DNA of 64,000 nt from Eledone cirrhosa (taxonomy: Eukaryota). Location: NCBI GenBank assembly GCA_964016885.1, contig OZ024754.1:40920001-40984000 (forward strand), in the 5' to 3' direction. Positions 19,755-22,031 of this stretch are shown here, piece by piece. The notes under the pieces were generated by a model, which saw only the letters and a program-made list of their open reading frames with translations, ran no database searches and was not told the DNA's origin. The position numbers and the translations under genes are program-made. How positions within the stretch are numbered: the stretch's first letter is position 1; every line of letters begins with the position of its first letter.

Positions 19755-22031
19755 TTATGGTAGCTTTCGTACTTTTCCGAATTGAGATCAAAGCTCTGAT
19801 ATTACAGATATGTGGTTAGAATGTCTCAGGAAAGAACCACTGGACCGATTTGTAGCTCTGGAGATCAGTAACTCCAGGTAGAGCCGCTACTTCTCTGAAT
19901 TGAGAGATCTCAGCTCTGTTACTATGGACATGTTTAGAATGCTCTGGGAAAGAATCCTTGGACAGATTTTACAGGCAAAATCAACTGGCAGGAGACTCGG
20001 GGGTAGACCTCAAGCAAGATGGTTGGATAACATCCATTAGCTTCGCTGGTCTTGCTTGGGGATCCAGCCGGATCAATTGGAGATGATTGCTTCTGAGAGG
20101 ACCCGCCGGAAGGAGTGTTTGAGGACTCTCCACGGAACATTTTGTATCCTAATTTGTGAACAATAGCGTCGTAGGTTATAATTTTCCAAGAACTTAATCA
20201 CTGGTTCTCAGCATTTCCGAGGGCGTGTCAAAATACTCGGTAAAAAATTATAGAAAGACACCGTTCAGATTTTCGGTCTTCTTGCTGGTATTTATATCTT
20301 TCATCACCAATATATATACCTGAAAAAAAAAATATATATGCAGGTACACAAATATAGTATAAGTATATATTTTATATGTATAATTTATGAGCTTCCGAAC
20401 AGTTTCCATTTAAAAAAAATTTCTCTCACAAGGAATTGGTCTGAAACTGATAGACAAGTTACACACACACACAGGAAACAAACTAGACTATTGCGAGGAG
20501 AACTCGACCACACATCCTTCCCTATAGACATTTCTAATAGTTGTATTTTAAATATTTCTTATACAGATTAATTAGTTACGTATCTTCAGACAACCGAGCC
20601 TATTTTTTTCTAAAATTTAAAAGAATTCTTGATTTATAACTTAAATCTTTGTTAGATTCTAAATATGTAATAAAACCTGATCCGAATATATCGTCTGTAT
20701 TATATTTGTAGCTACTAGAAGAAATAAGAGACGGCGACATTCTACCAATGGAGGAATTTATACAAGCCTTAATCAATGTATGTAATTATGTCTAAATTGT
20801 TTCACAAGTAATAAATTATTTCATGTACCAGTAACAAGTCTGAAAATAGACAACTTAATGCTAGAACAGAACTTTAATTCTTAGCTCTCCTTTCATTTTT
20901 ATTTGAGGGGGACCAGTCAATTAGAAATTGTTTTAAAAGATTCTCTTAGACCGGAATAGGAATAACTGAGGCTAATTTTAGTCGGACGTCTGAGAAATGT
21001 GACATAGCTCTTGGGGTGGGTGGGGTGGTCGGTCAATACGGGGTGGAGTATTTAATATCTTGGCGATAATGTACATAATTTCCAAACATTTGAGATTTTC
21101 AATAGACAAAATGGAACAGAATAGAAAACTAAGAATTTTTAGACCATTTGATCTTCTATAAACTATATTTTATTGGCAATCTTTTAACGGATTCTCCAAA
21201 TAAAATGTTAGATGTTCTCCTTTCAGTTTGCAGCAGATATTTAAATGTCAACCATTACTGAGTTCGTATCAATTTATCATTTCAATAGGGATGCACCTTA
21301 GAGATAAGAGAGATACAACTTTTATTTGGTTGCACGGAAGTTAATCGGGAAACCCTCTACCAAATCATAGAACCTTTAGCTCTGAATGGTGAGGTAAGTA
21401 GAGCCAAACCTTTTAGTAAGAAGTATTACAGATTCTGGTAGTTAGTATAACGACTCTATTTACTCTTTATAATTTCAGCTCAGATATAACCACATGATGT
21501 GCTATATCGAGTTAAAAGATGTACTTCACTACCAGAGACATTTTACAGCTAGGTCAGATGTACAGAACTTGCTTTCTTATTTTGGCATCGTAGCAGACAT
21601 TGTAAACCGACAAAACAGCTCTTTCACGGTGAGCATGTTTCATATCTCTCTGTATTTCGTCCAAATATGTTCCTATCTCTGGATCCCAGACCAGAAGTTA
21701 AAATGTTGACATGATCTCAGAAATTAACTAACGTTTCTTTCTAATTATTAGAGGAGTGATGTTGATCGAACAATAGCTATTTACACTGGCCATATTAACT
21801 GCAATGACTTGAACCTGGAGCAGGCTGATCAAATCTACCTGATTCGGGTGAGATATTTTACTTTCACATTTTAACGTTGATCTGCTTTATCTATTATCTT
21901 TTTCTTAATTTACTAAATATCACTTTTTCTTTTTTCCACCTTCCCCCTCTTCCCTGGAACAGCAAGGATGGAATTCTACCGTTGCTTATCTTCGATCGTT
22001 TGGAGAAAATCAAAACGGTCAAAACATTTGA
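13292..22031 (+). CDS. Patatin-like protein copy 2 (predicted pseudo-phospholipase), 13 exons, ~504 aa
   Basis: Exons: 13292-13495, 13925-14072, 14820-14956, 15807-15942, 18632-18727, 18888-19012, 19141-19238, 19630-19714, 20712-20777, 21289-21393, 21479-21628, 21752-21847, 21963-22031; GT-AG, open frame. Motifs [55 protein letters not shown]. Confidence 0.9.
13686..13863. mobile_element. Tc1/mariner (pogo/Tigger-like) MITE in intron 1 of copy 2
   Basis: Terminal inverted repeats CCGTATTTCCCGG...CCGGGAAATACGG with TA at the right flank; absent from the aligned intron of copy 1. Confidence 0.75.
14290..14495. repeat. Degenerate ~39-bp tandem repeat, about 5 copies
   Basis: Recurrent TCGTTGC[TA]ATAGTTTACC..AACATA. 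Confidence 0.8.
15528..15779. repeat. (CT)n-rich microsatellite just upstream of exon 4 of copy 2
   Basis: Directly visible. Confidence 0.97.
16674..18597. repeat. 76-bp minisatellite, about 25 copies, intron 4 of copy 2
   Basis: Unit GTGAGATGACCTGTGGCTAAACTTGACCG[CT]A[AG]CGTGAATCTGACCTGGTCAATATAATACATATATCT[AT]ACTAGAA; starts at 16674, 16750, ...; no unique spacers. Confidence 0.97.

Follow-up and report, generated by a model that had tools for sequence, protein, structure and literature searches.

Gene conversion erases the differences between paralogs except where selection removes the converted allele (PMC3924837, PMC2588116), and an exon-bound peak of divergence under gene conversion is a known signature. 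One example is exon 5 of the human red and green opsins, whose divergence peak is reviewed together with the model of Teshima and Innan in PMC3924837. The opsins are neighbouring old duplicates under gene conversion in which the introns are homogenised and one exon keeps fixed differences; the two residues responsible have been identified, and the peak recurs in orthologues. Further examples are the Drosophila transporters CG18281 and CG17637 (PMC2588116) and Tigriopus GOT1p1 and GOT1p2 (PMC3728101), in which local peaks of paralog divergence within converted blocks were taken as selection against conversion. In the Drosophila case, a second species showed the peaks to be shared and not due to relaxed constraint; the same account cautions that simply searching for diverged regions can yield false positives (PMC2588116).

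The locus described here lies in a window of 64,000 nt (the whole stretch of DNA analysed; 36% G+C, zero N) on contig OZ024754.1 of Eledone cirrhosa. Like opsin exon 5, it holds two neighbouring old duplicates, copies 1 and 2 of a patatin-fold gene, whose introns are homogenised by conversion and in which one exon, exon 11, keeps its differences. Unlike the opsins, the two copies are inverted and only 1.75 kb at their 3' end is under conversion, and whereas the Drosophila peaks were compared with those of a second species, the island of E. cirrhosa is known from one genome. Judged by titles and the openings of abstracts, none of the papers listed on octopus gene conversion and tandem duplication deals with this locus. 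So far, few gene pairs are documented to show this signature; the present pair does so cleanly and with exon-sharp limits, and its island singles out 12 residues in an unstudied protein family.

The Locus and Its Gene Models

The predicted exon models give four patatin-fold genes in the window, with a common set of 13 coding exons and intron phases and with GT..AG at all 48 of their introns (12/12 in each of copies 1 and 2). Copy 1 (4264..11829, minus strand, 497 aa) and copy 2 (13292..22031, plus strand, 504 aa) are arranged head-to-head, with 1,462 bp separating their start codons. The two are an old inverted duplicate, with a dS of about 0.5 across exons 1-8. Copy 3 (26857..32881, plus strand, 528 aa), 61% identical to O. 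bimaculoides LOC106880002 (P0022), and copy 4 (39331..43548, plus strand, 492 aa), 64% identical to O. bimaculoides LOC106880001 (P0003), are older paralogs that serve as outgroup. No orthologue of copies 1 and 2 was found among the 227 proteins retrieved (81 + 150 hits), the best of which is 38% identical.

Several smaller features accompany these models. The upstream arms of copies 1 and 2 (11646-12271 and 12844-13508) are 80% alike and inverted around a spacer of about 570 bp, and a shared two-way promoter for the head-to-head pair is possible. An in-frame ATG lies 50 codons 5' of the start chosen for copy 2 (13142-13291, plus strand), whose N-terminus may be longer than the modelled 504 aa. 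All four chosen starts read Met-Gly, which we take to be a possible myristoylation signal. Intron 4 of copy 2 is mostly made up of tandem units of about 76 bp (16676-18600), and a short interspersed repeat family is present in many copies (3126-3351, 11503-11651, 22852-23036, 25797-25900, 41031-41220, 55346-55562, 59941-60137 and others).

An Exon-Bound Island in a Homogenised Tract

The homogenised tract spans the end of intron 8, exons 9-13 and the 3' UTR of copy 2 (20481..22304, plus strand); its inverted partner in copy 1 (3956..5804, minus strand) lies 14.7 kb away. In inverted alignment, copy 1 4038-5804 (minus) and copy 2 20481-22257 (plus) are 96.5% identical. Exon 11, at 21479..21628 (plus strand) in copy 2 and 4668..4817 (minus strand) in copy 1, comprises 50 codons in both, with AG/GT splice sites, phase 0/0 and an open frame. 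Compared without gaps, the two exons differ at 22 of 150 nt and at 12 of 50 residues, the latter count and the peptides quoted with it being correct in an earlier note on this DNA; a gapped alignment reads the same exon as 18 substitutions plus 2 indels (one compensating 1-nt indel pair). Outside exon 11, the 1.75 kb tract (20507-22257) carries 21 substitutions in 1,588 aligned sites (1.3%), which bears out the earlier statement that the flanking introns and 3' UTR are near-identical. Exons 9 and 10, described there as encoding identical peptides, indeed lack substitutions altogether (0/66 and 0/105), as do intron 10 (0/83, with one 2-nt indel) and intron 11 (0/123), so that the peak far exceeds its flanking introns; exon 12 has 1/96, exon 13 2/69 and the 3' UTR 1/226.

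The contrast between exon 11 and the rest of the tract is far beyond chance (Fisher p = 2e-13), and none of 20,000 permutations placed 22 differences in any 150-site window, the maximum being 15. The edges of the island are equally sharp: all 22 differences are exonic, and 232 and 201 bases free of substitutions flank them. Upstream of the tract, exons 1-8 differ at 228 of 996 coding sites, which amounts to 114 residue differences besides the 12 of exon 11.

Within the exon, the differences fall into three patches, each of which alters residues, with identical runs of 23 and 37 nt between them. The main patch (21497..21549, plus strand; codons 7-24) holds 16 nucleotide and 8 residue differences, the second (21573..21577, plus strand; codons 32-33) 3 differences that give LS in copy 2 and HT in copy 1, and the third (21615..21619, plus strand; codons 46-47) 3 differences that give NS in copy 2 and SN in copy 1. 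This clumping exceeds random placement at the codon level (p 0.0007, in a test picked after the pattern was seen), and the separation into three patches suggests that short conversion tracts probably crossed parts of the exon. Some of the differences at 21521-21527 and 21537-21544 can also be read as single events, namely the deletion of 1 nt and, 4 nt away, the insertion of another, as well as a possible 2-nt inversion within a short inverted repeat of copy 1.

Additionally, copies 1 and 2 share a second near-identical patch (approximately 13393-13508, plus strand, and 11646-11760, minus strand), which spans the 3' half of exon 1, including the glycine-rich loop, and the start of intron 1, with 4 differences in about 100 coding nt. 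In the flanks of exon 11, 10 of the 21 substitutions lie in close pairs, so that small remnants are found in introns as well. Together, the exon 1 patch and the intronic close pairs point to conversion as a mosaic of short tracts.

An Old Remnant

The differences in exon 11 are mostly not synonymous, 16 of the 22 being non-synonymous and 6 synonymous (pN 0.13, pS 0.20), and their mix is indistinguishable (p 0.64) from that of exons 1-8, which have 151 non-synonymous and 77 synonymous differences (pN 0.19, pS 0.35). Synonymous sites are raised in the exon too, with 6 differences in about 30 sites against 18 in 1,252 (1.4%) in the non-coding part of the tract (p 4e-6), which indicates that the island is old divergence kept in place. 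Residue divergence is 24% in exon 11 and 36% in exons 2-8. Thus, exon 11 is an unconverted remnant that resembles the unconverted 5' part of the gene, not a burst of change, and it is one copy-specific piece among many rather than a specially diverged one.

Two other accounts of the exon were considered and rejected. Positive selection, in the sense of dN/dS above 1, does not fit a pN/pS of 0.65, which is not above 1 (p 0.39). Neither is exon 11 generally hypervariable: pooled over 25 disjoint pairs drawn from 169 aligned rows of the family, its segment is only 0.20 different, against 0.25-0.32 for exons 7-10. In two octopus orthologue pairs exon 11 is the second most variable of 11 exons (14/49 against 53/362 elsewhere in one of them, p 0.02; p 0.11 in the other), and in a third pair only 1 of 50 residues differs.

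Structural Context and Two Proposed Forms of Selection

An AlphaFold model was made of P0022, a paralog that is 38% identical to copies 1 and 2 (pLDDT 91, pTM 0.89). The model matches CapE (Z 25.1, rmsd 3.1, 268 aligned), VipD (Z 24.5, rmsd 3.2, 255 aligned) and PNPLA9 (Z 21.0, rmsd 4.0, 264 aligned), and its scores against CapE, VipD, PlpD and patatin (Z 23-25) are those of the patatin alpha/beta fold. Residues 320-410 additionally resemble calmodulin-like domains with a middling score (Z 6.0-7.7, rmsd 2.6-4.8, 65-78 aligned). Exon 11 corresponds to P0022 residues 393-442, between core strands 5 and 6, and contains the exit helix of the second EF-hand-like motif (395-410), a loop and a helix (424-437), just after which core strand 6 (449-453) follows. 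The segment between core strands 5 and 6 is, in the terms of PMC12871566, the patatin regulatory segment, which carries the dimer helix of PNPLA9. On the model, exon 11 would be the end of this segment.

The P0022 homodimer was predicted with a score of 0.57, the best of 3 controls scoring 0.00, and its runs agree in at least 72% of contacts with pLDDT of at least 78. In microbes, 20 of 30 solved pairs and 1 of 23 single chains attain the mark that it passes; in eukaryotes, 17 of 29 pairs (7 of 16 in animals) and 0 of 30 single chains do so, although only 1 of 7 eukaryotic pairs without an older solved relative passed. PlpD and PNPLA9 dimerise through the patatin domain, and because these dimers are already solved, the pass may reflect only memory or likeness. 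Among the 51 listed contacts of the predicted homodimer, 19 fall in exon 11 and 32 in exons 3-6 and 8, with none in exons 9, 10, 12 and 13, and the contacts of exon 11 face exons 3-6 and 8. That one exon of five should match the interface has a chance of 0.2-0.3 and is weak alone. At the level of single residues, the identical spacers of exon 11 form the predicted contact core, with the differing residues arranged around this core. Listed contacts make up only 2 of the 12 differing residues but 17 of the 37 aligned residues that are identical, a trend contrary to enrichment (p 0.09).

These results allow a mechanism to be proposed for how the island could have been kept. Short conversion tracts would repeatedly overwrite exons 9-10, which encode degenerate EF-hands, and exons 12-13 at little cost, while a tract replacing the copy-specific residues of exon 11 would create a chimeric protein that is purged by selection. 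More weakly, the cost might arise since exon 11 ends the patatin regulatory segment and must match the unconverted exons 3-8 of its own copy, either within the chain or across the homodimer, with a contact core common to both copies and copy-specific residues around this core. We tentatively favour this account, in which the purged alleles are chimeras whose regulatory segment misfits their own N-terminal half or their dimer partner, as a possibility that falls somewhat short of probable. Counting against it, the copies differ at partner positions 170, 213 and 220, although the exon 11 residues touched by these positions are identical.

Selection could also keep exon 11 distinct if the residues that set the copies apart recognise ligands, membranes or partner proteins from outside that are different for each copy, an explanation that we consider rather unlikely and that shares with the misfit account the evidence for selection from the patches, the simulations (see below) and the divergence. 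In its favour, 10 of the 12 differing residues are not among the listed dimer contacts, and 7 of the 12 map to P0022 404-417, which comprises a helix end and a loop of lower confidence (pLDDT 70, 411-420), so that, being mostly non-contact, they may face outwards. In line with this, the regulatory segment binds activators or the membrane in PNPLA2, ExoU and PNPLA9 (PMC12871566), and exon 11 ranks second in variability in the two octopus orthologue pairs mentioned above. An outside partner does not sit easily, however, with the lack of any excess of replacement changes (pN 0.13, pS 0.20), with the third orthologue pair (1/50) or with a family that is not hypervariable in this segment, and the lid loop lies in the converted exon 12.

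The position of the lid also bears on the earlier note, which took exon 11 for a specificity determinant, a ligand or partner surface whose 12 sites might cluster at the pocket or lid. They do not: the lid of VipD (376-386) comes after strand 6 and aligns, albeit weakly, with exon 12, in which copies 1 and 2 are one residue apart, and just 2 of the 12 sites count among the listed contacts of the predicted dimer. The step to a ligand or pocket determinant finds no support in the individual residues, the proteins lack the catalytic serine, and the special status given to exon 11 is at odds with the 114 other residue differences in exons 1-8. The idea that selection shields the exon fared better, as the flanks were converted, the exon escaped and selection is the likeliest cause; what did not stand is that the exon is specially diverged (24% against 36%).

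Selection and Its Non-Selective Alternatives

To what extent neutral processes yield such an island was gauged by simulating neutral mutation and conversion under 18 parameter sets, a toy model whose parameters were not measured in cephalopods; one of the sets gave zero well-homogenised runs. In the 10 sets without mismatch blocking, an island of at least 20 differences arose anywhere in 0 to 8.7% of well-homogenised runs, and the exon 11 slot with clean introns was never hit. Where clusters of mismatches stop conversion tracts, an island appeared anywhere in up to 305/515 well-homogenised runs, the share under strong blocking being 23-59%, and a peak alone is therefore no proof of selection. 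The specific pattern, with at least 20 differences in the exon 11 slot and clean flanking introns, was found in 0 to 1.4% of well-homogenised neutral runs, and in the blocking sets in at most 7/515 and 8/771. Thus, the exact fit of the island to the exon would be, within this model, stronger evidence than the peak itself.

A neutral gap, in which tracts stall at a mismatch-dense patch and an old remnant that protects itself happens to lie in exon 11, draws on the same simulations, since strong blocking readily produces islands. It is also compatible with the mix of replacement and synonymous changes, which is like that of the rest of the gene (p 0.64) and consistent with neutrality (p 0.39), and the close-pair remnants in introns imply that the two 3-nt patches need no selection. 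Nevertheless, the rarity of the exon 11 slot with clean introns under blocking, and its absence from all 10 non-blocking sets, speak against this explanation, as does the tract itself, which is 72% non-coding and yet holds no large remnant in its non-coding part; we regard a neutral gap as unlikely. Instead, an island that is confined to coding sequence in three patches and is rare in neutral simulations makes selection likely, and selection against conversion of exon 11, taking together the misfit of chimeras and an outside partner, is probably responsible. This grading allows for a scan over very many duplicate pairs.

An artefact of assembly, with the two 3' ends being two alleles of one locus placed twice, was examined with runs X1-X3, which cover the stretch but come from one sample, perhaps the assembly's own source, and are thus not independent support. 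A flank divergence of 1.3% falls in the range of allelic differences. Both genes are complete, however, and differ in exons 1-8, and the depth of the tract contig in X1 and X2 (11.2-13.4) exceeds that of the contig at the copy-2 junction (7.4-7.8) by 1.5-1.7-fold, as expected for two copies; in X3 the corresponding depths are 8.4 and 3.3, a ratio of 2.5. The longest contigs of X1 and X2 end around exon 11. In X3, a contig of 1,762 nt that covers exon 11 and both flanks has 41 other letters and 18 gaps relative to copy 2, which equals the gap total of copy 1 and compares with 42 substitutions for copy 1. Likewise, contigs from the raw data, aligned to the copy 2 surroundings, carry the letters of copy 1 at many flank sites. 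Almost no reads of the RAD-seq run X4 fall on the tract. The raw-data contigs therefore fit two genomic copies rather than the merging of haplotypes that the earlier note had allowed for, and an artefact is very improbable.

Transfer of exon 11 into one copy from a third paralog or a cDNA, or a cluster of error-prone repair after homogenisation, is suggested by the exon-bounded outline of the island and by its adjacent doublets and triplets, one stretch being readable as a compensating indel pair, but is hardly credible given that copies 3 and 4 are far too diverged as donors, that no further patatin exon lies within the window and no relative above 38% is found among the 227 proteins retrieved, that contig depth is consistent with two tract copies, and that the exon 11 frame is open with zero stops.

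A Patatin Family without the Catalytic Serine

The genes of the window belong to an invertebrate group that combines patatin with EF-hands (PF01734 with PF00036/PF13499), to which they are similar in domain order and motifs. Members of this group, called 'YqhO-like' in bivalves, are the best non-cephalopod hits at 33-37% identity. The family profile matches calmodulins, and single exons of copies 2-4 match PF01734 below the curated cut-off. Exon 11 alone gave no homologue in a word-index search, which is a weak test, and matches Pfam by chance only.

The window genes differ from most of their relatives at the nucleophile elbow, which is encoded by exon 2 in all four (e.g., 13925-14072, plus strand) and reads GAGTG in copy 1 and GVGTG in copies 2-4 instead of GXSXG. 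Across the 169 aligned rows, this position is serine in 139, glycine in 22, another residue in 2 and a gap in 6, the glycine rows including the four window genes together with Octopus, Argonauta and cuttlefish proteins. In a quick, midpoint-rooted tree of 44 rows, 17 glycine rows fall in one clade of 19 (SH-aLRT 100), whose remaining two rows, P0245 and P0228, cluster with glycine rows at 90%; a separate clade holds 5 further glycine rows, one of them a protein of the leech Helobdella. The glycine-rich oxyanion loop reads EGCG in copies 1-4 and EGGG in most serine-bearing relatives. The DGA/G motif with the catalytic aspartate is present as LDGG in all four copies.

An active patatin is defined, in PMC12871566, by three motifs that include the nucleophilic serine of GXSXG. 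Lacking this serine, the proteins would not be active patatin lipases by that definition, and copies 1-4 and their coleoid relatives are predicted pseudo-enzymes, as far as their residues tell. Unlike in their patatin + EF-hand relatives, the calcium ligands of the EF-hands are degenerate in copies 1-4, in which inspection of the alignment also failed to reveal the acidic pattern that the loop shows in six rows from bivalves, cnidarians and nemerteans. The solved patatin domains (CapE, VipD, PlpD, CapV, patatin and PNPLA9/iPLA2-beta) are 13-24% identical to the P0022 proxy and are active or activatable Ser-Asp hydrolases without an EF-hand-like insert in the regulatory segment. Mutual-information contacts computed from 122 rows gave no clear signal.

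Copies 1 and 2 probably encode lipid-binding or scaffold proteins without catalytic function. On a wider and more doubtful view, coleoids would have turned an invertebrate calcium-regulated patatin lipase into an expanded set of non-catalytic, dimerising lipid sensors or scaffolds. If this were true, the conversion tract in E. cirrhosa would work like a natural scan, in which exon 11 stands out as the strip that decides the partner of each copy. The family itself is the larger lead, in that every member of the coleoid clade retrieved is without the catalytic serine while the fold is kept and the copies have multiplied. This serine-less coleoid patatin family appears undescribed: no paper on it was found in the literature searched, which lies mostly outside the subscription journals, although supplementary gene lists may mention the family. 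Two of its Octopus vulgaris relatives, P0008 and P0014, are named 'NHL repeat-containing 2-like', a name that looks misapplied, as both contain only PF01734 and align over their full length with the patatin + EF-hand family.
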